Under the pieces are notes generated by a model that was not told where the DNA came from, ran no database searches, and was given only the letters and a program-made list of their open reading frames with translations. Shown one piece after another: positions 3,657 through 29,459 of a stretch of 64,000 nucleotides of DNA. The stretch comes from Escherichia phage vB_EcoM_Alf5, in sequence record KX377933; one strand, 5' to 3'. A program made the translations under genes and the position numbers. Each line of letters opens with the position of its first letter. Position 1 is the first letter of the stretch.

Positions 3657-4205
3657 ATGAAGAAATTGATTCTAGGTTTGTGCTTAATGTTTACAGCACA
3701 CTTATCTTATGCAGTTGACTGCCCAGAGCTATCAATTAGCCAAAAAGTAAACATGTTAAAAGCTTACCAGTATGGTGAGAATAACATGGGTAAAGGTTGG
3801 GGTATCACTCTAGCTGCTATAGCCTTACAAGAGTCAGAGTTAGGTCTGAAGGTAGAGAATAAAAAGACACATGATTATGGTATCTTCCAGAATCACTTGA
3901 AGACTGTTGTAAAGCGTAACAAAATCAGTCCTAATGTGGCTAAAAAGAAACTCTTAAAAGATTTTGACTATGCTGCAAAGGAAACACACAAAGAGCTTGA
4001 ATTTTGGACTAAGGTACACGGTCAACCAAAGTCAAAGAAGACTTTACAAAAAGTTTTAGCATCATATAATGCTGGGTATTCATACAAAATTCCTAAAGCT
4101 AAGAAATACTCTCAAGATGTCTATAACAATATGAAAGTCATCGCTCAATGTGAATTTGCAACAAACATTTCTAAGGTAAATCATGAAAAAATTAAGAAAG
4201 TTTGA
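3657..4205 (+). CDS. lytic transglycosylase (SLT domain) with signal peptide
   Basis: N-terminal hydrophobic signal; ES (ALQESELGL), GIFQ and AYNAG-like (ASYNAGYSY) motifs of family 1 transglycosylases. Confidence 0.55.
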   Translation: MKKLILGLCLMFTAHLSYAVDCPELSISQKVNMLKAYQYGENNMGKGWGITLAAIALQESELGLKVENKKTHDYGIFQNHLKTVVKRNKISPNVAKKKLLKDFDYAAKETHKELEFWTKVHGQPKSKKTLQKVLASYNAGYSYKIPKAKKYSQDVYNNMKVIAQCEFATNISKVNHEKIKKV

Positions 4206-4878
4206 TGAAGTATTGTGCCATGCTTATGACTTACATCCTCATGAGTTAGGTCTTGATTCCTGTGTATGGACTCCAGAACAGTGCAGGGATTTTGAAGACA
4301 CCGCAAGAGAAGTTGTATGTTCACTTGAAGAGTTCCACACATCAGAACCAATTGTGAACGTTGTGGACAAAGAGACTGGGCAATCCATAGGTGTAAAACG
4401 TGATAGTTTAGTCATAGTCAACAAAGACCTTGTAGAGAAAGGTAATCTTATCTTAGCAGATATTGATGGAGTTCTTACAAATTTTAATCACGAAGATTGT
4501 TCAACGGAATTGACTGATGGTTCATTTTCACAGTACACTAATCTTCTTGACTCTGTAAGAGCAAAACCAACGTATGTTTTCAATATCATTGATGCAATTG
4601 CTAATCATGCTGCCGTTGGACTCTTGACAGCGAGAGGCGAATCTCAGAGAATACCTACTGAGATGTTTTTAAGGCATAACACAGAGCATGATTATATGCT
4701 TTTTATGCGTGGTTTTGGAACTAACTCTATAAGTGCAGAAAGTTTGAAAGTGAGGATGATTCAGTCTTGCATTCTGCCTTACTTTAATATAGTATGTTTT
4801 ATAGAAGATACAGAGAAGAATGTGCAGAAGGTGAATAGAATCCTTCCACACATCAAAACCATGTTAGTTAAACATTGA
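4183..4878 (+). CDS. hypothetical protein, possible HAD-like hydrolase
   Basis: 231-aa ORF; LILADIDGVLT resembles HAD motif I but lies ~95 aa from N-terminus; weak. Confidence 0.4.
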   Translation: MKKLRKFDEVLCHAYDLHPHELGLDSCVWTPEQCRDFEDTAREVVCSLEEFHTSEPIVNVVDKETGQSIGVKRDSLVIVNKDLVEKGNLILADIDGVLTNFNHEDCSTELTDGSFSQYTNLLDSVRAKPTYVFNIIDAIANHAAVGLLTARGESQRIPTEMFLRHNTEHDYMLFMRGFGTNSISAESLKVRMIQSCILPYFNIVCFIEDTEKNVQKVNRILPHIKTMLVKH

Positions 4879-22626: not shown

Positions 22627-24042
22627 ATGAGCGAGTTATTTAAACATGCACACCTTCATGCAGGTCGGACTGAAAATGGTGCTGTAAACCATACTTCATC
22701 AATGTCTGCTCTGGTAGACTTTTACAAAGCCGCTGGCTCAAGCCGTAGCAATGTAGAAATCTTACCAGACCTGTTCTACAAAGCTTTGCATGAGGATGTT
22801 GATGTTGCAGTTCGTATTTTACTGCATATGCGAGATGTACGAGAAGGTATGGGTGAGCGTAAAGCTTTCCGAACTGTTTTACTTCAAGCAATTGAAGATA
22901 AAGTTTTAGAGCCTACACAGGTTCTTCGCATTATGGATAAGATTGCAGAACTTGGTCGTTTTGATGACTTCAAAATCTTCGTAGGTACTCGTTTCGAGAC
23001 GGATGCCTTCAAACATTTAGAGGCAGCATTACTAGACCCTGCAACAGCAGGTTTGGCAGCTAAGTGGTTACCACGAGTCAAACCACGTCATAAGCAGTTT
23101 GTAAAACGTTTCTGCAAGTTTGCCAACTTGAGTGAGAAAGAGTACCGCACACTGTTATCTGCACTGTCTGATACGGTTGAGCAAAAAATCTCTGCTAATG
23201 AGTTTGGTAAGATTGACTACAGCAAGATTCCTTCACTCGCTGCTGCACGTTACCAAAAGCTCTTTAACCGCAAAGATGGAGAACGTTACAAAGCTTACAT
23301 CGAATCACTCTCAAAGGGTGAGTCTAAGATTAACGCTGGTGCTGTTTATCCATACGATGTGATTAAGTCTATCAAGCATGGTAATGCAGATGTTGCCAAT
23401 GAGCAGTGGAAAGCACTACCAAACTGGATGGCAGAAGGTGAGAACATCTTGTGTATGACTGATGTTTCAAGCTCAATGTCTTGGGTGAATCTTGGTTCAA
23501 TCACTGCCCTTGATATTGGTGTATCACTTGCCTTGTATGTAGCAGAACGCAATACAGGTTGCTTTAAGGATGAGTTGATGGTTTATTCAACAAACCCTCA
23601 CTTCATTGAACTGAGTGGTGATTTACGAAACCGTCATCGTCAGGTGATGCGACACGTTGAATATGGCTCAACTAACTTACAGGCAGCTTTTGACCGCATT
23701 CTTGAGGTAGGTAAAAGAAACAACTTGACTCAGAAAGATATGCCAAGTAAGCTTATCATCTTCTCTGATATGGAGTTCAATCAGGTTGATGGAGCTAATG
23801 GTCGTACAAACTTTGAAGCAATTCAGAGTAAGTACAAAAAAGCTGGATATGAGATGCCACAACTGGTATTCTGGTACTTAGCAAACCGTAATGGTACTTG
23901 CGAAGTGTCTGTTAAGGATAACGGTGTAGCAATGGTATCTGGTTTCTCTCCAGCCACTTTAAAAGCTTTGCTTGGTGGTGAGAAGTTTGACCCAATCAGT
24001 GTAATGCTCAAAGCAGTAATGATTGACCGTTACATCTGGTAA
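22627..24042 (+). CDS. Ro60/Rsr-like protein (TROVE-like N-terminal region plus vWA domain with MIDAS)
   Basis: 471 aa; LCMTDVSSSM (DxSxS), downstream GSTNL and IIFSDMEF fit a vWA MIDAS; ERKAFRTVL resembles Ro60 TROVE as recalled. Confidence 0.55.
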   Translation: MSELFKHAHLHAGRTENGAVNHTSSMSALVDFYKAAGSSRSNVEILPDLFYKALHEDVDVAVRILLHMRDVREGMGERKAFRTVLLQAIEDKVLEPTQVLRIMDKIAELGRFDDFKIFVGTRFETDAFKHLEAALLDPATAGLAAKWLPRVKPRHKQFVKRFCKFANLSEKEYRTLLSALSDTVEQKISANEFGKIDYSKIPSLAAARYQKLFNRKDGERYKAYIESLSKGESKINAGAVYPYDVIKSIKHGNADVANEQWKALPNWMAEGENILCMTDVSSSMSWVNLGSITALDIGVSLALYVAERNTGCFKDELMVYSTNPHFIELSGDLRNRHRQVMRHVEYGSTNLQAAFDRILEVGKRNNLTQKDMPSKLIIFSDMEFNQVDGANGRTNFEAIQSKYKKAGYEMPQLVFWYLANRNGTCEVSVKDNGVAMVSGFSPATLKALLGGEKFDPISVMLKAVMIDRYIW

Positions 24043-24207: not shown

Positions 24208-24284
24208 CTCTGTTTAGCTCAGCTTGGTAGAGCGTTCCGTTTGGGGCGGTAAGGCCGGAGGTTCAAGTCCTCCAACAGAGACCA
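24208..24284 (+). tRNA. tRNA, anticodon TGG (Pro)
   Basis: 7-bp acceptor ctctgtt/aacagag, D-stem gctc/gagc, T-arm ggagg-ttcaagt-cctcc, encoded CCA. Confidence 0.55.
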
Positions 24285-24291
24285 AATTAAT

Positions 24292-24369
24292 GTTCCAGTA
24301 GACAAAATGGTAAAGTCACCACTCTTTCAAAGTGGATATTTGAGGGTTCAAATCCCTTCTGGAACGCCA
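24292..24369 (+). tRNA. tRNA, anticodon TTC (Glu)
   Basis: acceptor gttccag/ctggaac, anticodon arm ccact-ctttcaa-agtgg, T-loop ttcaaat, CCA. Confidence 0.6.
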
Positions 24370-24375
24370 GTTTTG

Positions 24376-24452
24376 ACAGAAGACCAATTACAGCAAACTT
24401 AATCTACTCATCTGACACGAAATCGGACAAAGAAGATATTTGGTCTGGTCAT
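24376..24452 (+). ncRNA. repeat module A: conserved stem-forming motif pair
   Basis: agaccaa (24381-87) pairs with ttggtct (24440-46); shared flanks acagaagacc and ggtctggt. Confidence 0.35.
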
Positions 24453-24459
24453 TAAGAAT

Positions 24460-24536
24460 TGCGGGTATAGAGAAAGGGCGTCTCACATGTCTCATTAGCA
24501 TGGTATCGGCAGGTTCGACTCCTGCACCCGCCTCCA
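24460..24536 (+). tRNA. tRNA, anticodon CAT (Met)
   Basis: D-stem gaga/tctc, anticodon arm catgt-ctcatta-gcatg, T-arm gcagg-ttcgact-cctgc; 1:72 appears unpaired. Confidence 0.5.
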
Positions 24537-24541
24537 AATTT

Positions 24542-24610
24542 ACAGAAGACCGTTTACAGCAATATTTATTAAATTTTTAGCGGAAAAATTGAAAGATACG
24601 GTCTGGTAAT
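24542..24610 (+). ncRNA. repeat module B
   Basis: agaccgt (24547-53) pairs with acggtct (24598-604); same acagaagacc...ttacagcaa / ggtctggt flanks. Confidence 0.35.
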
Positions 24611-24619
24611 ACTAAACAT

Positions 24620-24696
24620 GGTTAGGAAGCACATAAGGTATGTGCGGTCGCCTGTTAAGCGAATGGCACAGGGTTCGAATCCCTGACTAACCGCCA
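24620..24696 (+). tRNA. tRNA, anticodon GTT (Asn)
   Basis: D-stem gcac/gtgc, anticodon loop ctgttaa, T-arm caggg-ttcgaat-ccctg, CCA. Confidence 0.55.
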
Positions 24697-24765
24697 AATT
24701 TAGGAGAGAAGCGATTGCTCACCGATTTGTAAGGTGCAAGTCCTTAGCCTGAATAGAAATTAAAT

Positions 24766-24853
24766 GTGTCGTTATCCCGTAGATGGTAGCGGTGGGGACT
24801 GTAAATCCCTTGTCATTGAGACTCGGTAGGTTCGACTCCTACACGGCACACCA
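24766..24853 (+). tRNA. tRNA, anticodon GTA (Tyr), long variable arm
   Basis: acceptor gtgtcgt/acggcac, anticodon loop ctgtaaa, 15-nt variable arm, T-arm gtagg-ttcgact-cctac. Confidence 0.6.
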
Positions 24854-24858
24854 ATAAA

Positions 24859-24936
24859 GGTTATGTAGTTTAATTTGGTTAAAATACTCCCCTGTCACGG
24901 GAGATGATGAGGGTTCAAATCCCTTCGTAGCCGCCA
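24859..24936 (+). tRNA. tRNA, anticodon GTC (Asp)
   Basis: anticodon arm ctccc-ctgtcac-gggag, T-loop ttcaaat, CCA. Confidence 0.6.
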
Positions 24937-24963
24937 ATTTTGAGAGGACTATTTAGCCCCTCC

Positions 24964-24995
24964 CTTAAAGAGTTCTTACGAGTATTCTTTAAAGG
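24964..24995 (+). promoter_or_regulatory. hairpin with conserved loop GTTCTTACGAGTAT
   Basis: cttaaagag-gttcttacgagtat-tctttaaag; a second copy with the same loop occurs at 28346-28377. Confidence 0.4.
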
Positions 24996-24996
24996 A

Positions 24997-25072
24997 GCAG
25001 AAGACCAAATTCAGCAAGAACGTATGAAATTTCAAGCCAATTTAATTTTGAAAATTTAAACTTGGTCTGGCT
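24997..25072 (+). ncRNA. repeat module C
   Basis: agaccaa (25002-08) pairs with ttggtct (25062-68); degenerate copy of modules A/B. Confidence 0.3.
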
Positions 25073-25081
25073 CAACAAATT

Positions 25082-25218
25082 TACAGAAGACCGTTTACAG
25101 CAAAACTTAAACAATCTATTTCTCCGGTAAAGAAAAGGCGAAGGTTCGATTCCTTCACTCGGCAGATGTCGAGTTGGTGTAATGGTAGCACTTAAGATGA
25201 TAAACAACGGTCTGGTAA
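25082..25218 (+). ncRNA. candidate Y RNA-like ncRNA with permuted tRNA-like domain
   Basis: 8-bp stem agaccgtt (25088-95) / aacggtct (25206-13) encloses T-arm gaagg-ttcgatt-ccttc, hairpin actcggc-agat-gtcgagt and D-arm gtgt-aatggta-gcac. Confidence 0.45.
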
Positions 25219-25358
25219 TTATCTTTGTAGATAAGTTATTAAGCTTACCTGTGAGTATGCGACCACAAAGGGTGAAAGGGTAAATTCTAGATTTAAACCC
25301 AAAAAGGCACATCGCTACAGACCTTAAGCAAGTCTGGGTAGCTTATCTACAAAGATAA
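25219..25358 (+). repeat. 17-bp perfect inverted repeat enclosing ~105 nt
   Basis: ttatctttgtagataag (25219-35) and cttatctacaaagataa (25342-58) are exact reverse complements. Confidence 0.6.
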
Positions 25359-25364
25359 TTTAAT

Positions 25365-25440
25365 GGAAGTGTAGCAGAATGGTGATGCGGCAGACTTTTA
25401 ATCTGACAGGCGATGGGTTCGAATCCCTCCACTTCTACCA
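25365..25440 (+). tRNA. tRNA, anticodon TTT (Lys)
   Basis: acceptor ggaagtg/cacttct, anticodon arm (g)caga-cttttaa-tctg, T-loop ttcgaat, CCA. Confidence 0.5.
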
Positions 25441-25444
25441 ATAT

Positions 25445-25521
25445 GGTTCAGTCGCAGATAAGGTAATGCAAGGGTCTCATAAGCCCTATGAATGTGGGTT
25501 CGATTCCCATCTGAACCTCCA
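25445..25521 (+). tRNA. tRNA, anticodon CAT (Met or Ile2)
   Basis: acceptor ggttcag/ctgaacc, anticodon arm agggt-ctcataa-gccct, T-loop ttcgatt, CCA. Confidence 0.5.
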
Positions 25522-25598
25522 AGCTGGTATAGTTAAGAAGGTTATAACACTCCCCTGATAAGGGAACATCGGTGGTTCGATTCCACCTACCAGTACCA
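25522..25598 (+). tRNA. tRNA, anticodon GAT (Ile)
   Basis: D-stem gtta/taac, anticodon loop ctgataa, T-arm ggtgg-ttcgatt-ccacc, CCA. Confidence 0.55.
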
Positions 25599-25606
25599 AT
25601 TTCAAT

Positions 25607-25645
25607 AAAGTTGTTGACATTGAGATGTGACTACTTTATAGTAAC
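25607..25645 (+). promoter_or_regulatory. sigma70-like promoter inside tRNA island
   Basis: aaagTTGTTGACA, 17-bp spacer, TATAGT. Confidence 0.45.
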
Positions 25646-25846
25646 CTTAGTTTTCGTTGCGTAGCGTCTATTTTGCAAATTTAAAATAAATGCAAACGAC
25701 AATGTTTTTCTGGCAGTAGCTTGATAGGCTAAACACCAGTGAGGTCTTCCAATCCCTCATCAAAGAATTTGGCGTACTAGCCCACGGTATGATTAATAAG
25801 GTGGGCATCTTTAAGGGCTTTCTAAGAGAGTCTTTAAAGATAATTA

Positions 25847-25928
25847 CGGGGCGTATCTCAGCGGTCTTCTAAACCGCCGTTAACCGAGTAAGTGGAGTAT
25901 GCGGGTTCGAGTCCTGCCGCCTCGACCA
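25847..25928 (+). tRNA. atypical tRNA-like element, anticodon-like loop TCT (Arg?)
   Basis: 7-bp acceptor cggggcg/cgcctcg and T-arm present, perfect hairpin gcggt-cttctaa-accgc, but no canonical D-arm; 23 nt before T-arm. Confidence 0.3.
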
Positions 25929-25942
25929 ATTTTGGAGAAATC

Positions 25943-26290
25943 ATGAAAACTTGTATTAGGTGCAAACTTAGCAAGGATGAAAATGATTTCTACATGAAAG
26001 ATGGTAGGAGGACTCATTCATACTGTAAAAAGTGTGTTAATGAGCAAACCATAGAAAGACAAAGAGCACTTAAACTCTCAGCTATTGAGTACAAAGGTGG
26101 GGTTTGTCATGATTGTGGTAAAAAGTATCATCCAGCAGTGTATGACTTCCATCATTTGAATCCTTCAGATAAAGATTTTAACATTGGTCATAGGAAAAGC
26201 CTTAAGTTCTCTCAAGAACTAAAAGATGAACTTGACAAATGTGTTTTGCTATGTTCAAATTGCCATAGGGTAAGACATGCAAAGTATTAG
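25943..26290 (+). CDS. HNH homing endonuclease
   Basis: CxxC...HHLNPSDKDFNIGH...CSNCH motifs; ATG at 25943 with GGAG RBS; track start 25892 lies inside the tRNA-like element. Confidence 0.65.
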   Translation: MKTCIRCKLSKDENDFYMKDGRRTHSYCKKCVNEQTIERQRALKLSAIEYKGGVCHDCGKKYHPAVYDFHHLNPSDKDFNIGHRKSLKFSQELKDELDKCVLLCSNCHRVRHAKY

Positions 26291-26427
26291 TTAGCAGATT
26301 ACTTAGACGACCTTAGCGGGTCTTCCTGTAGGGAGGTGGTCTGTATCTCATGTTTTCCAGAACATGTAAATAATCTGAGAAGGGGCTTTACAGTGTTGAG
26401 ATAATACGGTAAGCTTCGAATTATAGT

Positions 26428-26510
26428 ATGGGACGATGTTAAGACTCTAAGGCATGAGCAACGGCCTCCAAAACCGTTTCAAAGGGGTTCAACTCCTCCG
26501 TCCCATGCCA
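26428..26510 (+). tRNA. atypical tRNA, anticodon CCA (Trp?) with ~7 extra nt between acceptor and D-arm
   Basis: perfect acceptor atgggac/gtcccat, anticodon arm acggc-ctccaaa-accgt, T-loop ttcaact, CCA. Confidence 0.4.
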
Positions 26511-26523
26511 AAGTCTTATTAGG

Positions 26524-26611
26524 GGTAGGTAGCGGCTAATGGTAGCCAAACTGTCTTGAAAACAGTTGCCACTGTAGAGATACGGTGAGGGTTCGACTCC
26601 TTTACTTACCG
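26524..26611 (+). tRNA. tRNA, anticodon TGA (Ser), long variable arm
   Basis: anticodon arm actgt-cttgaaa-acagt, ~20-nt variable arm, T-arm gaggg-ttcgact-ccttt; no encoded CCA. Confidence 0.55.
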
Positions 26612-26868
26612 CCTAATAAGATTTAAAGCCAAGCTTCATTCGGATGTCGCTTTGGTATCCCGCGTGTATTGTCGTACACACTGATAAAACACCTAGTAGG
26701 TGTCACGGAGAAGAGATAATATCAAGCTCTCCAAAGGTTCTAGTCACCGGATTAAACAAGACTATGCAAAGACCTTTTTAGGTCTTTTTAGAGGGCTTCT
26801 AAGGTTATTACAGCTTGTTGTGGAACCTTGTTGCTTAGGTTCTTAGAAGTTCTCTAAAAAGATTTAAT

Positions 26869-26946
26869 GGGAGATTGACGGTAATTGGTAAACCTACCAT
26901 CCTTAGAAGTTGGTGTTTGAGGGTTCGAATCCCTTGTCTCCTACCA
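26869..26946 (+). tRNA. class-I tRNA, anticodon TAG (Leu by anticodon)
   Basis: acceptor gggagat/gtctcct, anticodon arm ccatc-cttagaa-gttgg, 5-nt variable loop, T-loop ttcgaat, A73, CCA. Confidence 0.45.
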
Positions 26947-26953
26947 AATTAAT

Positions 26954-27029
26954 GCAGGTGTAGCAAAATGGTTATGCGGCTGACTCTTAATCAGTAAGAC
27001 GACGGGTTCAATTCCCTCCACCTGTACCA
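26954..27029 (+). tRNA. tRNA, anticodon CTT (Lys)
   Basis: anticodon arm (g)ctga-ctcttaa-tcag(t), T-loop ttcaatt, CCA. Confidence 0.5.
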
Positions 27030-27034
27030 AAAAT

Positions 27035-27110
27035 GGGGTCATAGTTTATATGGTTAAAATTCGAGTTTTGCAAACTTGGGAACTGAGTTCAATTCTCAGT
27101 GACTCCACCA
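27035..27110 (+). tRNA. tRNA, anticodon TGC (Ala)
   Basis: acceptor ggggtca/tgactcc, anticodon arm cgagt-tttgcaa-acttg, T-arm ctgag-ttcaatt-ctcag, CCA. Confidence 0.6.
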
Positions 27111-27116
27111 ATTAGT

Positions 27117-27191
27117 GCATCCATAGTTTAAACGGGAAAATTACAGTCTTCCAAACTGAGGTTGAGGGTTCGATTCCCTCTGGATGCTCCA
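27117..27191 (+). tRNA. tRNA, anticodon TCC (Gly)
   Basis: perfect acceptor gcatcca/tggatgc, anticodon loop cttccaa, T-arm gaggg-ttcgatt-ccctc, CCA. Confidence 0.55.
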
Positions 27192-27197
27192 AATTAA

Positions 27198-27274
27198 TGC
27201 TCCTATCGTATAATCGGCTATTACGGTTGCCTTGTAAGCAACTTATCAGGGTTCGAATCCTTGTGGGAGCACCA
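27198..27274 (+). tRNA. tRNA, anticodon TGT (Thr)
   Basis: anticodon arm gttgc-cttgtaa-gcaac, T-loop ttcgaat, CCA. Confidence 0.6.
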
Positions 27275-27275
27275 A

Positions 27276-27368
27276 TTCAGAGGTCAAGTGAAAGACCGCT
27301 GGTGTCAACTGAAGACCGTAACAAATTCCACGGAGTTGAGTTAGCGGCACAACTTCAGACCTCTTTCA
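27276..27368 (+). ncRNA. structured non-tRNA spacer with paired repeat segments
   Basis: agaggtc/gacctct and ctgaag/cttcag complementarities; two GAAGACCG motifs. Confidence 0.3.
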
Positions 27369-27369
27369 C

Positions 27370-27444
27370 ACTCGCTTAGTTTATATGGTAAAACATCACC
27401 CTTACAAGATGAAGAAAAAGGTTCAAGTCCTTTAGTGAGTACCA
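27370..27444 (+). tRNA. tRNA, anticodon TAC (Val)
   Basis: D-stem gttt/aaac, anticodon arm tcacc-cttacaa-gatga (one mismatch), T-arm aaagg-ttcaagt-ccttt, CCA. Confidence 0.55.
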
Positions 27445-27445
27445 T

Positions 27446-27523
27446 GTTCCAGTATCCCAATTGGCAGAGGATGCAAGCTCAAACCTTGTATTAGTGACGG
27501 TTCGAATCCGTCTTGGAACACCA
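27446..27523 (+). tRNA. class-I tRNA, anticodon CAA (Leu by anticodon)
   Basis: acceptor gttccag/ttggaac, anticodon arm gcaag-ctcaaac-cttgt, short variable loop, T-arm gacgg-ttcgaat-ccgtc, A73, CCA. Confidence 0.5.
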
Positions 27524-27541
27524 ATTTAAAGAGGCTATTTA

Positions 27542-28099
27542 ATGAGATATTTGAAGTACGCTTCATGGATTTTCTTAGCTTTACTAGACCCAATTGCAGC
27601 AATCCTAGCAGTTATTTTAGCACCTTTCGTAGTTCCATTCTACAGTGAGAAGAAAGGACATCTACCTTTTGGATTCAGATGGATGGAGACATATGACAAC
27701 CCAATTGATGGTGATGAAGGTCACGTTAAAAGATGGGCTAAGATTAGAAAGATTGGTAAGCTGGGTGTCTACATGCAGAGAGTCGGATGGCTCTGGAGAA
27801 ACAAAGCTTATAACTTCTCTTACCATGTATTAGGAAGAGATGTAAAAGATGTTACTAAGTGGAAAGGTAATATCAACGTAAGTTCTGACCCCGAAGATAA
27901 TCAGACAGGTTATCTCCTAATGTGGAACAACAATGCTTGGGGATTATTCGCTTTTATTCCGTCAATTAAAGTCTTTGGTAAACAGTTTTACTGGAGAATT
28001 TATGTTGGATGGAAACTAAAAAGTGTTGTCCCAGAAGAAAGAGCATTCTCAAGGGAAAGAGTTATGTTGGCATTCTTTATTCATCCACTGAGAAAGTAA
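27542..28099 (+). CDS. hypothetical membrane protein inside tRNA island
   Basis: 185-aa ORF; N-terminal hydrophobic segment IFLALLDPIAAILAVILAPFVVPF; Trp-rich; AGAGG RBS. Confidence 0.5.
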   Translation: MRYLKYASWIFLALLDPIAAILAVILAPFVVPFYSEKKGHLPFGFRWMETYDNPIDGDEGHVKRWAKIRKIGKLGVYMQRVGWLWRNKAYNFSYHVLGRDVKDVTKWKGNINVSSDPEDNQTGYLLMWNNNAWGLFAFIPSIKVFGKQFYWRIYVGWKLKSVVPEERAFSRERVMLAFFIHPLRK

Positions 28100-28107
28100 A
28101 GATTTAA

Positions 28108-28183
28108 AGGGGATTAGTTTACAAGGTTAAAACCTCGGTCTTTGAAATCGAAGAAGTTGGTTCAATTCCAACATCCCCCGCCA
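28108..28183 (+). tRNA. tRNA, anticodon TTG (Gln)
   Basis: D-stem gttt/aaac, anticodon arm tcggt-ctttgaa-atcga, T-arm gttgg-ttcaatt-ccaac, CCA; 1:72 A-C mismatch. Confidence 0.55.
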
Positions 28184-28185
28184 AT

Positions 28186-28264
28186 GCTCCATTACTCCAA
28201 TTGGCAGAGAGGCCAGACTTAAAATCTGTGTTATGTATCGGTTCGAATCCGATATGGAGTACCA
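28186..28264 (+). tRNA. class-I tRNA, anticodon TAA (Leu by anticodon)
   Basis: acceptor gctccat/atggagt, anticodon arm (c)caga-cttaaaa-tctg, T-arm atcgg-ttcgaat-ccgat, A73, CCA. Confidence 0.45.
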
Positions 28265-28269
28265 ATTTT

Positions 28270-28345
28270 AGCGGTATAGCATAACTGGCAATGCAGCAGT
28301 CTCTGAAGCTGTCCTATTAAGGTTCAAATCCTTATGCCGCTGCCA
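28270..28345 (+). tRNA. tRNA, anticodon CTG (Gln)
   Basis: D-stem gcat/atgc, anticodon arm gcagt-ctctgaa-gctgt, T-arm taagg-ttcaaat-cctta, CCA. Confidence 0.55.
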
Positions 28346-28377
28346 CTTCTAAGGGTTCTTACGAGAATCCTTAAATG
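28346..28377 (+). promoter_or_regulatory. second copy of hairpin with loop GTTCTTACGAGAAT
   Basis: ctaagg-gttcttacgagaat-ccttaa directly after tRNA 3' end. Confidence 0.4.
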
Positions 28378-28452
28378 TGGCCTTATCATAAATGGTAATG
28401 ACCCATGCTGTGAACATGGTCTATACGGGTTCGACTCCCGTAGGTCACCCCA
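28377..28452 (+). tRNA. tRNA, anticodon GTG (His)
   Basis: anticodon arm ccatg-ctgtgaa-catgg, T-arm acggg-ttcgact-cccgt, C73, CCA. Confidence 0.6.
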
Positions 28453-28457
28453 ATTTA

Positions 28458-28534
28458 TAGTCCAAGTAGCTTATATGGTTAAAGCGCGTGTCTGAAAAAC
28501 ATGAGAAGAGGGTTCAAATCCCACTGGACTACCA
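28458..28534 (+). tRNA. tRNA, anticodon GAA (Phe)
   Basis: D-stem gctt/aagc, anticodon arm cgtgt-ctgaaaa-acatg, T-loop ttcaaat; acceptor register ambiguous by 2 nt. Confidence 0.5.
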
Positions 28535-28550
28535 ATTTCAAAGGTGCTTA

Positions 28551-29285
28551 ATGAAAGAGATGACAGAACAAGGTAAGGAGATTTTTAATCTCTTAAAAAC
28601 CGGTAAAGGGTTTTCTAACCCACTTATTACTGGTGCAGCAGTTCTCGGTGGAACCGTAGCTGCCTCTACATCACTTGTAAGCTCTATTAGCTCTGTAACA
28701 GACCCTACAATGAAGGAGAAGCTTGTTGCTGCTGGACTTACAACAGTCCTTCTAAACAGCTTTACAACAAGCCTGACAAGCACTACAGCAACTACTAAGA
28801 CCCTAACAGACTATGGTCAAAAGTCTATTGATGAGTTTTCATCACGTATGCAGGTAGCAAAGGGTTATTCCAATGTTATGGGTGCAGCAGGAGAACAAGT
28901 TGGTTGTACACCATTCAGTGGTATTATGGGTGTTGCTACAGAGTATGGTCAAAAAGCTATTGACATGATTAACAGCACACTAGACAGTGTTAACGGTGTG
29001 TTAAGTGACTTACAAGACGCTATTGATAAGGGTCTTGATACTGTTTCTGATTTAGCTAATCAGGCTGTTAGTAAGATTAATGAAGGTATCTCAAAGATTA
29101 CAGCTTATGCAGATGAAGTTGTGCAGATGATTGAAGAAGAAGCTGCCCTTATTACAGAGTACCTTAAAACTAATATCAATGGGTTCTTAGCAGGTATCTT
29201 ACCAGACTGGTTTGATGATGCTTGTAAAACTGGTGTGATTGATACTATTGCAACACCAGAAATGAAGAGCGCATTACAGAAATAA
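28551..29285 (+). CDS. hypothetical Ser/Thr-rich protein inside tRNA island
   Basis: ATG at 28551 after AAAGG RBS; track start 28488 lies inside the preceding tRNA. Confidence 0.5.
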   Translation: MKEMTEQGKEIFNLLKTGKGFSNPLITGAAVLGGTVAASTSLVSSISSVTDPTMKEKLVAAGLTTVLLNSFTTSLTSTTATTKTLTDYGQKSIDEFSSRMQVAKGYSNVMGAAGEQVGCTPFSGIMGVATEYGQKAIDMINSTLDSVNGVLSDLQDAIDKGLDTVSDLANQAVSKINEGISKITAYADEVVQMIEEEAALITEYLKTNINGFLAGILPDWFDDACKTGVIDTIATPEMKSALQK

Positions 29286-29286
29286 C

Positions 29287-29379
29287 GGAAGATTAACCCT
29301 AAAAGGTAAGGGAGCAGTTTGCTAAACTGCCAGTAGCTGAGAAATCGGTGTACCAGTTCAAGTCTGGTATCTTCCTCCA
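29287..29379 (+). tRNA. tRNA, anticodon GCT (Ser), long variable arm
   Basis: perfect acceptor ggaagat/atcttcc, anticodon arm gcagt-ttgctaa-actgc, ~21-nt variable arm, T-arm accag-ttcaagt-ctggt, CCA. Confidence 0.6.
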
Positions 29380-29383
29380 ATTT

Positions 29384-29459
29384 GAATCCGTGACAGAAAT
29401 GGATATGTGCCTGTCTGCAAAACAGGTTTATAAGGGTTCAAGTCCCTTCGGATTCTCCA
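29384..29459 (+). tRNA. tRNA, anticodon GCA (Cys)
   Basis: perfect acceptor gaatccg/cggattc, anticodon arm cctgt-ctgcaaa-acagg, T-arm aaggg-ttcaagt-ccctt, CCA. Confidence 0.6.

Follow-up and report, generated by a model that had tools for sequence, protein, structure and literature searches.

Type I (short variable loop) leucine tRNAs in the tRNA cluster of Escherichia phage vB_EcoM_Alf5 and in other phages

Introduction

Leucine and serine tRNAs are said to be long-armed everywhere but in animal mitochondria (Giege and Eriani review 2023, PMC9976931), and nearly all prokaryotic tRNA-Leu is stated to be of this long-armed type II, the exception being called rare and phages being unmentioned (Fan et al. 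2019, NAR, PMC6614811). Here, we describe three tRNA-Leu genes of type I, that is, with a short variable loop, in a 64,000-nt stretch (the window) of the genome of Escherichia phage vB_EcoM_Alf5 (KX377933), a Felix O1-like phage (Ounavirinae) of 39% G+C that infects E. coli and Salmonella. We refer to them by anticodon as Leu(UAG), Leu(CAA), and Leu(UAA).

The closest described system is the type I tRNA-Leu(CAA) of Streptomyces coelicolor, which is charged by the single leucyl-tRNA synthetase (LeuRS) of that bacterium and by human mitochondrial LeuRS (PMC6614811). Animal mitochondrial tRNA-Leu is likewise type I and has a variable loop that is short; A73 and A14 serve it as identity elements, and it is charged by a bacterial-type LeuRS (PMC9976931). 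A genomics paper briefly mentions that a Mycobacterium has a short-loop tRNA-Leu encoded in a cluster. In our literature search, short-armed tRNA-Leu in phages was not found described. The leucine identity set of E. coli consists of A73, A14, A15-U48, G18G19, and A20a and does not include the long arm; a tRNA-Leu stripped of both its variable and its anticodon arms is still charged (PMC9976931).

The phage genes share with those of S. coelicolor and other Actinomycetota a variable loop of about 5 nt, A73, the U8-A14 pair, and the anticodons CAA, UAA, and UAG, and the Actinomycetota D-arm GCCCAAUUGGCAGAGGC nearly matches the D-arm UCCCAAUUGGCAGAGGA of the phage Leu(CAA) and Leu(UAA), including C13. 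They differ in setting, the phage genes lying in a 24-gene viral cluster with variable loops of 5-7 nt whereas the Actinomycetota genes are chromosomal; leucylation by its bacterial LeuRS has been demonstrated for the Streptomyces tRNA. The mitochondrial tRNAs, which we set beside the phage ones by description only, are organellar, structurally relaxed, and served by their own mitochondrial LeuRS.

Results

Three leucine tRNA genes without a variable arm

ARAGORN calls exactly three tRNAs with Leu anticodons (tag, caa, and taa, each in a 7-nt anticodon loop), the same three that the original prediction had named as the only ones in the window (Table 1). With the variable region taken as positions 44-48 and its length parsed from the ARAGORN bracket structures, Leu(UAG), Leu(CAA), and Leu(UAA) have 5, 6, and 7 nt, in agreement with the predicted 5-7 nt, and none of these regions contains a stem, as opposed to the stemmed arm of more than 10 nt of a canonical type II tRNA. 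The tRNA-Tyr and the two tRNA-Ser of the same cluster serve as internal comparators and keep their long arms, also as predicted. On the Rfam tRNA model (gathering threshold 29), the three are clearly tRNAs, yet they score lowest among the ARAGORN-called short-variable-loop tRNAs of the cluster. The full CCA end is encoded by 23 of the 24 cluster genes. The three genes are genuine type I leucine tRNAs; the kind is known, and these copies are new.

Table 1 Positions and main properties of the tRNA cluster, the three leucine tRNA genes, and the class II comparators in the window
Feature	Position	Strand	Length (with CCA)	Variable region	Other features	Evidence
tRNA gene cluster, 24 tRNAs	24208..29459	+			contains all three Leu genes	ARAGORN
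tRNA-Tyr(GUA), class II	24766..24853	+		15 nt	internal comparator	ARAGORN
tRNA-Ser(UGA), class II	26524..26613	+		20 nt	internal comparator	ARAGORN
tRNA-Leu(UAG), type I	26869..26946	+	78 nt	UGUUU (5 nt)	A73, G1-U72	ARAGORN, Rfam 40 bits
tRNA-Leu(CAA), type I	27446..27523	+	78 nt	AUUAGU (6 nt)	A73	ARAGORN, Rfam 44 bits
tRNA-Leu(UAA), type I	28186..28264	+	79 nt	GUUAUGU (7 nt)	A73, G1-U72	ARAGORN, Rfam 47.5 bits
tRNA-Ser(GCU), class II	29287..29379	+		21 nt	internal comparator	ARAGORN

In Leu(CAA) and Leu(UAA), which have C13, a D-stem of 3 bp closes an 11-nt D-loop, CAAUUGGCAGA, that contains A14, A15, G18G19, and A20a. In Leu(UAG), which has G13, the loop motif AAUUGGUAAA is present and the D-stem is irregular: in the alignment of type I tRNAs described below, its D-arm TGACGGTAATTGGTAAACCT aligns with TGACGGAATTGGTATACGT of Escherichia phage 4MG, Vibrio phage River4, and Aeromonas phage 4_4572 if an additional base and a C11-C24 mismatch are allowed, whereas ARAGORN draws a GGT/ACC D-stem. 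The tRNA-Glu(UUC) of the cluster (24292-24369) has the same 5' acceptor strand as Leu(CAA), GTTCCAG, and both have a 3-bp D-stem and an 11-nt D-loop.

The E. coli LeuRS identity set is present in all three tRNAs

The original prediction set the three tRNAs apart from bacterial tRNA-Leu as a class II family. This is correct for the E. coli K-12 tRNAs of the same anticodons, in that leuW (UAG, 85 nt), leuX (CAA, 85 nt), and leuZ (UAA, 87 nt) have stemmed variable arms of 13, 13, and 15 nt, respectively, but not for bacteria in general, type I tRNA-Leu being found in Streptomyces (PMC6614811) and on Actinomycetota chromosomes. Host and phage tRNAs match in anticodon, A73, and U48; the host D-arm has, like that of the phage Leu(CAA) and Leu(UAA), a 3-bp stem and an 11-nt loop, RAAUYGGUAGA, with G18G19 and A20a, and the G1-U72 pair of leuZ recurs in two of the phage tRNAs. 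Apart from the missing arm, the phage tRNAs differ in C13 of Leu(CAA) and Leu(UAA), where the host tRNAs have R13, and in A9, where the host CAA and UAA tRNAs have G9. The whole set recognized by E. coli LeuRS (A73, U8-A14, A15-U48, G18G19, and A20a) is present in all three phage tRNAs, although presence alone is no proof of charging; A73, which had been predicted for all three and is confirmed, is part of this set (PMC9976931). None of the three has a G3-U70 pair.

Two differences lie in the anticodon loop. Residue G37 of leuW, an m1G37 site, is replaced by A37 in Leu(UAG). The motif A36A37A38 is a determinant for MiaA, and C38 in the phage Leu(CAA), in place of A38 of leuX, breaks it. The same motif is a determinant for TrmL (PMC9976931). 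Because of A37 in Leu(UAG) and C38 in Leu(CAA), the phage tRNAs may carry a modification set different from that of the host.

The cloverleaf is under purifying selection

The 2.2 kb that span the three genes have 97-98% identity to Salmonella phage Felix O1, which has a corresponding cluster, and to more than 200 Felixounavirus genomes; in Felix O1 and these relatives, the genes are mostly annotated as 'tRNA-Leu (x3)'. A BLAST search against phages found Leu(CAA) unchanged (100% identity) in 158 phage records and, in Erwinia phage phiEa21-4, a match of 84% identity over 57 nt; this search gave matches in Ounavirinae only, the wider spread being seen through pattern scans. Phage phiEa21-4, of another genus of Ounavirinae, has three Leu tRNAs (caa, aag, and taa) of 77-78 nt, all short-armed, and between these and the tRNAs of the window the acceptor, anticodon, and T stems differ by paired substitutions while the D-arm, A73, and CCA are kept. 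Similarly, the Leu(UAG) of Salmonella phage Si3 differs from that of the window by six substitutions, all of them in three anticodon-stem pairs, with pairing kept or improved.

The three and other short-armed Leu tRNAs of phages and viral contigs, 59 in all, were aligned on a cloverleaf with a 3-bp D-stem. In this alignment, 96.9% of the cells are paired, compared with 57.8% in shuffles, changes on both sides occur in 19 of 20 pairs, and the covariation score is 1.02, against 0.24 after shuffling and at most 0.19 when the partners are slid. The full cloverleaf of type I Leu tRNAs is under purifying selection, because the stems evolve by compensatory substitutions and pairing is kept.

A natural hybrid tRNA occurs in Si3 (locus L002, 5001-5079), with a 5' part from Leu(CAA) up to the common D-loop, a 3' part from Leu(UAA), and an acceptor stem that mostly pairs. 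It evidently arose by recombination between paralogues, which removed the intervening DUF7338 open reading frame (ORF) and a tRNA-Gln(UUG).

Type I tRNA-Leu is common in phages

We scanned IMG/VR with a pattern for the D-loop and T-loop at class I spacing and obtained at least 120 stretches; counts here and in the genome scan below refer to the matches listed, and they are not true frequencies by phylum or host. ARAGORN finds 966 tRNAs on the matched stretches, including 60 short (5-7 nt) and 50 long Leu tRNAs, whereas Ser is long in 61/61 and Tyr in 32/35 cases. This pattern also matches many non-Leu tRNAs, and from such loci a less Leu-biased sample was built: in the 90 loci whose pattern match was not a Leu tRNA, 16 of the 58 Leu tRNAs are short. 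The viral short Leu tRNAs mostly carry A73 (53/60), U48 (59/60), and the Leu D-loop motif (53/60), and the G+C content of their loci ranges from 32 to 68%. A 5-nt variable loop is usual in the viral and genomic type I sets alike, and 6-7 nt is occasional.

Single cultured phages were confirmed from their own records. Escherichia phage 4MG (Vequintavirinae) has two short Leu tRNAs (78 and 77 nt), Vibrio phage River4 has one (77 nt), and Aeromonas phage 4_4572 has one short and one long; short Leu tRNAs are also present in Prochlorococcus phage P-SSM7 (73 nt) and Lactobacillus phage Bromius (74 nt as annotated, 76 nt by ARAGORN). Phage T5 has a long-armed tRNA-Leu of 85 nt with a 13-nt variable region. 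Type I tRNA-Leu is common in phages, namely those of E. coli, Erwinia, Vibrio, Aeromonas, Lactobacillus, and Prochlorococcus, and in IMG/VR contigs. A peculiarity of Felix O1-like phages is ruled out by the short Leu tRNAs of the IMG/VR loci, cellular genomes, 4MG, River4, and 4_4572.

Type I tRNA-Leu in cellular genomes and the lineages of the phage genes

A stricter pattern, which further demands the D-loop register specific to Leu and an NAR anticodon and which matched only short-armed Leu in the test set, gave at least 120 matches in species-representative genomes. All 120 listed are tRNA-Leu with a 5-6-nt loop, 117 of them with A73; by anticodon, they divide into taa (61), caa (28), tag (22), cag (5), and gag (4). 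In 96 of the 120, the gene is the sole tRNA in a locus of up to 8 kb. Actinomycetota account for 64 of the 80 titles shown, among them Mycobacterium, Nocardia, Rhodococcus, Corynebacterium, Arthrobacter, and Bifidobacterium, and the matches under the remaining titles are mostly in multi-tRNA arrays. Type I tRNA-Leu is an ordinary chromosomal gene across Actinomycetota.

Residue 13 separates the lineages: C13 is found in 133/138 genomic type I, 37/53 viral type I, and 0/40 viral type II Leu tRNAs. By their sequence features, we assign Leu(CAA) and Leu(UAA) to a C13 type I lineage common to Actinomycetota chromosomes, and Leu(UAG), with its degenerate D-arm, to a G13 minority lineage together with tRNAs of other coliphages and vibriophages, 4MG and River4 among them, and of 4_4572. 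Leu(CAA) and Leu(UAA) are not recent deletion products of enterobacterial tRNA-Leu, since C13 and the variable-loop motifs place them in an old type I lineage; blastn of Leu(CAA) likewise gave no match in 5,426 complete E. coli genomes.

Codons matching the three anticodons are frequent in the phage

The codons TTA, TTG, and CTA are rare in E. coli and Salmonella. A codon-usage check had been proposed for them: among the 1305 Leu codons of the window, TTA accounts for 27.4%, TTG for 13.9%, and CTA for 10.7%, together 52%, with similar proportions in the structural genes. When the terminase is compared with its phiEa21-4 orthologue, 15 of its 25 TTA/TTG/CTA codons align with Leu and 8 with Ile, Met, or Val.

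The anticodons of the three tRNAs are sense anticodons (for CUA/CUG and UUA/UUG) on a Leu-like body, and not those of suppressor or recoding tRNAs. Isotype hidden Markov models (HMMs) were trained on the 966 viral tRNAs minus short-arm Leu, after the anticodon had been masked and the variable region cut out; as controls, they place 10 of the 24 window tRNAs correctly (42%), which makes them a weak instrument. Leu is the best model for Leu(CAA) and Leu(UAA), even though trained on long-arm Leu only; for Leu(UAG), Gly (26.3 bits) ranks first and Leu (24.8 bits) second.

Other features of the tRNA cluster and its surroundings

Discriminator bases across the cluster include U73 in Cys and Gly, C73 in His, and G73 in Gln, in agreement with the E. 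coli identity rules, as for most cluster isotypes. E. coli tRNA-Ser has G73, which is also found in the tRNA-Ser(UGA) of the cluster; the tRNA-Ser(GCU) departs from these rules with U73, which is kept in phiEa21-4 (locus L001, 5940-6032) and Si3 (locus L002, 6103-6195).

Two further tRNA-like sequences lie within the cluster on the plus strand. An element at 25847-25925 scores 31.7 bits on the Rfam tRNA model without an ARAGORN call; it has a sound acceptor stem (CGGGGCG/CGCCTCG) and T-arm and an aberrant D/anticodon region, and immediately upstream of it, at 25540-25845, lie weak matches to 'tmRNA_permuted' and 'tmRNA'. Possibly, this is a tRNA in decay or a structured RNA of another kind. 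The second, at 26430-26504, adjoins tRNA-Ser(UGA) upstream and has an acceptor stem GGGACG.../...CGTCCC, a T-arm GGGGTTCAACTCC, and an anticodon loop that is too large; an ARAGORN call, with a 4-base anticodon, is obtained only at a 75% threshold, and Rfam gives a weak tRNA-Sec match (23 bits).

Felix O1 (locus L247, 25030-28243) has HNH endonuclease ORFs between its tRNA genes and a tRNA-Arg after Leu(CAA), both missing from the Alf5 window, where only a weak HNH-like ORF is seen (25943-26290). The tRNA cluster is a hotspot of homing-endonuclease gain and loss. Directly upstream of it, a 471-residue protein (22627-24042, plus strand) with DUF2828 and DUF7788, labeled 'RNA-binding protein' in the RefSeq records of Felix O1 and Si3, keeps its position in relatives, and a functional tie to the tRNAs is possible. 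Farther away, the ORF at 4183-4878 (plus strand), the counterpart of Felix O1 ORF4, is labeled 'polynucleotide kinase' in RefSeq and has no Pfam match at E<=0.01; should it truly be a kinase, a role in tRNA repair would be possible. A Felix O1-like tRNA region is also contained in GU169904.1 (Staphylococcus phage SA1, at 98.6% identity) and in five 'Campylobacter' phage records, which are probably contaminated or mislabeled entries.

Discussion

We consider it probable that the three genes provide working leucine tRNAs that are charged by the host LeuRS and serve the TTA, TTG, and CTA codons. The tRNAs would be transcribed from the phage cluster with CCA already encoded, and the host's own LeuRS would probably leucylate them, an expectation we hold because the long arm lies outside the E. 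coli identity set. The UAA and CAA anticodons would then read UUA and UUG, and the UAG anticodon CUA and CUG, all frequent codons in the phage. The same reasoning would explain why Leu alone has lost the arm while Ser and Tyr have kept it, because the host synthetases need the arm for Ser and Tyr and not for Leu: seryl-tRNA synthetase and bacterial tyrosyl-tRNA synthetase use the long variable arm. That the type is also kept in unrelated phages of E. coli and other gammaproteobacteria (4MG, River4, and 4_4572) is consistent with such a role.

Several observations weigh against this interpretation. In vitro, the type I tRNA-Leu(CAA) transcript of S. coelicolor was not leucylated by E. coli LeuRS at 1 nM, the enzyme is described as charging type II tRNA-Leu only, and earlier work of the same authors indicates that its leucine-specific domain favors a large variable loop (PMC6614811). 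Within the trio, the D-arm of Leu(UAG) is irregular, its anticodon stem contains a U-U mismatch, its Rfam score is the lowest, and it has A37 in place of the G37 of leuW; RefSeq marks its Si3 homologue as 'tRNA-OTHER, pseudo'. As to the biochemical result, the S. coelicolor tRNA, with its 5-nt variable region, has C48 whereas the phage tRNAs have U48, as does E. coli tRNA-Leu, and this difference may account for the failure of E. coli LeuRS on the Streptomyces tRNA.

A further proposal, which would complement leucine decoding by working tRNAs rather than replace it, is that loss of the arm is itself an adaptation, letting the phage tRNAs escape nucleases or toxins that recognize or cut type II arms, so that leucine decoding survives an attack on host tRNA-Leu. 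There are precedents among large coliphage clusters: the E. coli systems Septu and Retron-Eco7 (PtuAB) cut host tRNA-Tyr within its long variable loop, and the tRNA-Tyr of T5/SP15 (against Retron-Eco7) and of T6 (against Septu) are, as here, phage copies of type II-family tRNAs. The T5/SP15 tRNA-Tyr resists owing to a different variable loop, changes in that loop thus deciding resistance to a host nuclease, although in that case the arm stays long but altered and the target is tRNA-Tyr. Among toxins, MenT3 requires the long loop of tRNA-Ser, MenT1 acts on a type II tRNA-Leu, and AbiEii seems to favor tRNAs of class II. The idea also draws on the share of short Leu tRNAs in viral loci that were not picked through a Leu tRNA and on the host, in which the three K-12 Leu tRNAs checked are all long-armed and the phage Leu(CAA) has no blastn match. 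Nevertheless, our literature search found no defense system that cuts tRNA-Leu in the variable arm, the tRNA-Leu of T5 is still type II, and because type I is an ordinary gene on Actinomycetota chromosomes, no arms race is needed for it to exist. We regard such evasion as unlikely; if true, it would follow that type I tRNA-Leu is a substrate of enterobacterial LeuRS, contrary to the generalization from the Streptomyces substrate.

Alternatively, the tRNAs might be transcribed yet charged barely or not at all by enterobacterial LeuRS, being either baggage from an array lineage whose LeuRS charges type I or decoys that bind host factors. The negative result with E. coli LeuRS, the structural defects of Leu(UAG), and the close resemblance of Leu(CAA) and Leu(UAA), in D-arm and variable loop, to the actinobacterial chromosomal type I genes all speak for this possibility. 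However, uncharged tRNAs accord poorly with the compensatory stem changes among Ounavirinae genera, all of which infect Enterobacterales, with the fixation of A73, CCA, U48, and the D-loop, or with the complete identity of Leu(CAA) in so many records; the unrelated E. coli phage 4MG keeps two type I genes, and a decoy needs no intact acceptor end, identity set, or matching anticodon. Failure of charging therefore strikes us as quite improbable.

An origin of the tRNAs from another isotype through a changed anticodon, with an amino acid other than Leu inserted at Leu codons, is extremely improbable: the short variable loop is typical of non-Leu tRNAs and the crude HMM puts Gly slightly above Leu for Leu(UAG), a call of little weight given its controls, but the Leu-type D-arm (A14A15..G18G19.A20a), A73, and U48 are common to E. 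coli and viral type II Leu tRNAs, G3-U70 is absent, the anticodons fit no anticodon-dependent synthetase (identity rules, partly PMC9976931), and recoding is made unlikely because the terminase codons align with Leu or with Ile, Met, or Val. The recoding and decoy roles that the original prediction had offered as alternatives thus find no support, given sense anticodons, these terminase alignments, and a cloverleaf under selection.

Our data indicate that the armless form of tRNA-Leu is routine in two settings: the chromosomes of Actinomycetota, where it is encoded by lone genes, and the tRNA clusters of phages from many host phyla. It occurs in two unrelated groups of E. coli phages, whose host LeuRS is reported not to charge such a tRNA, and in phages whose host appears to be without type I tRNA-Leu. 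It conflicts with the published limit of E. coli LeuRS. Annotation pipelines sometimes label type I Leu genes 'tRNA-OTHER' or 'pseudo', and as a result phage tRNA repertoires are under-read. Finally, these genes give rise to a hypothesis that would link tRNA architecture to the newly found defense systems that cut variable loops.

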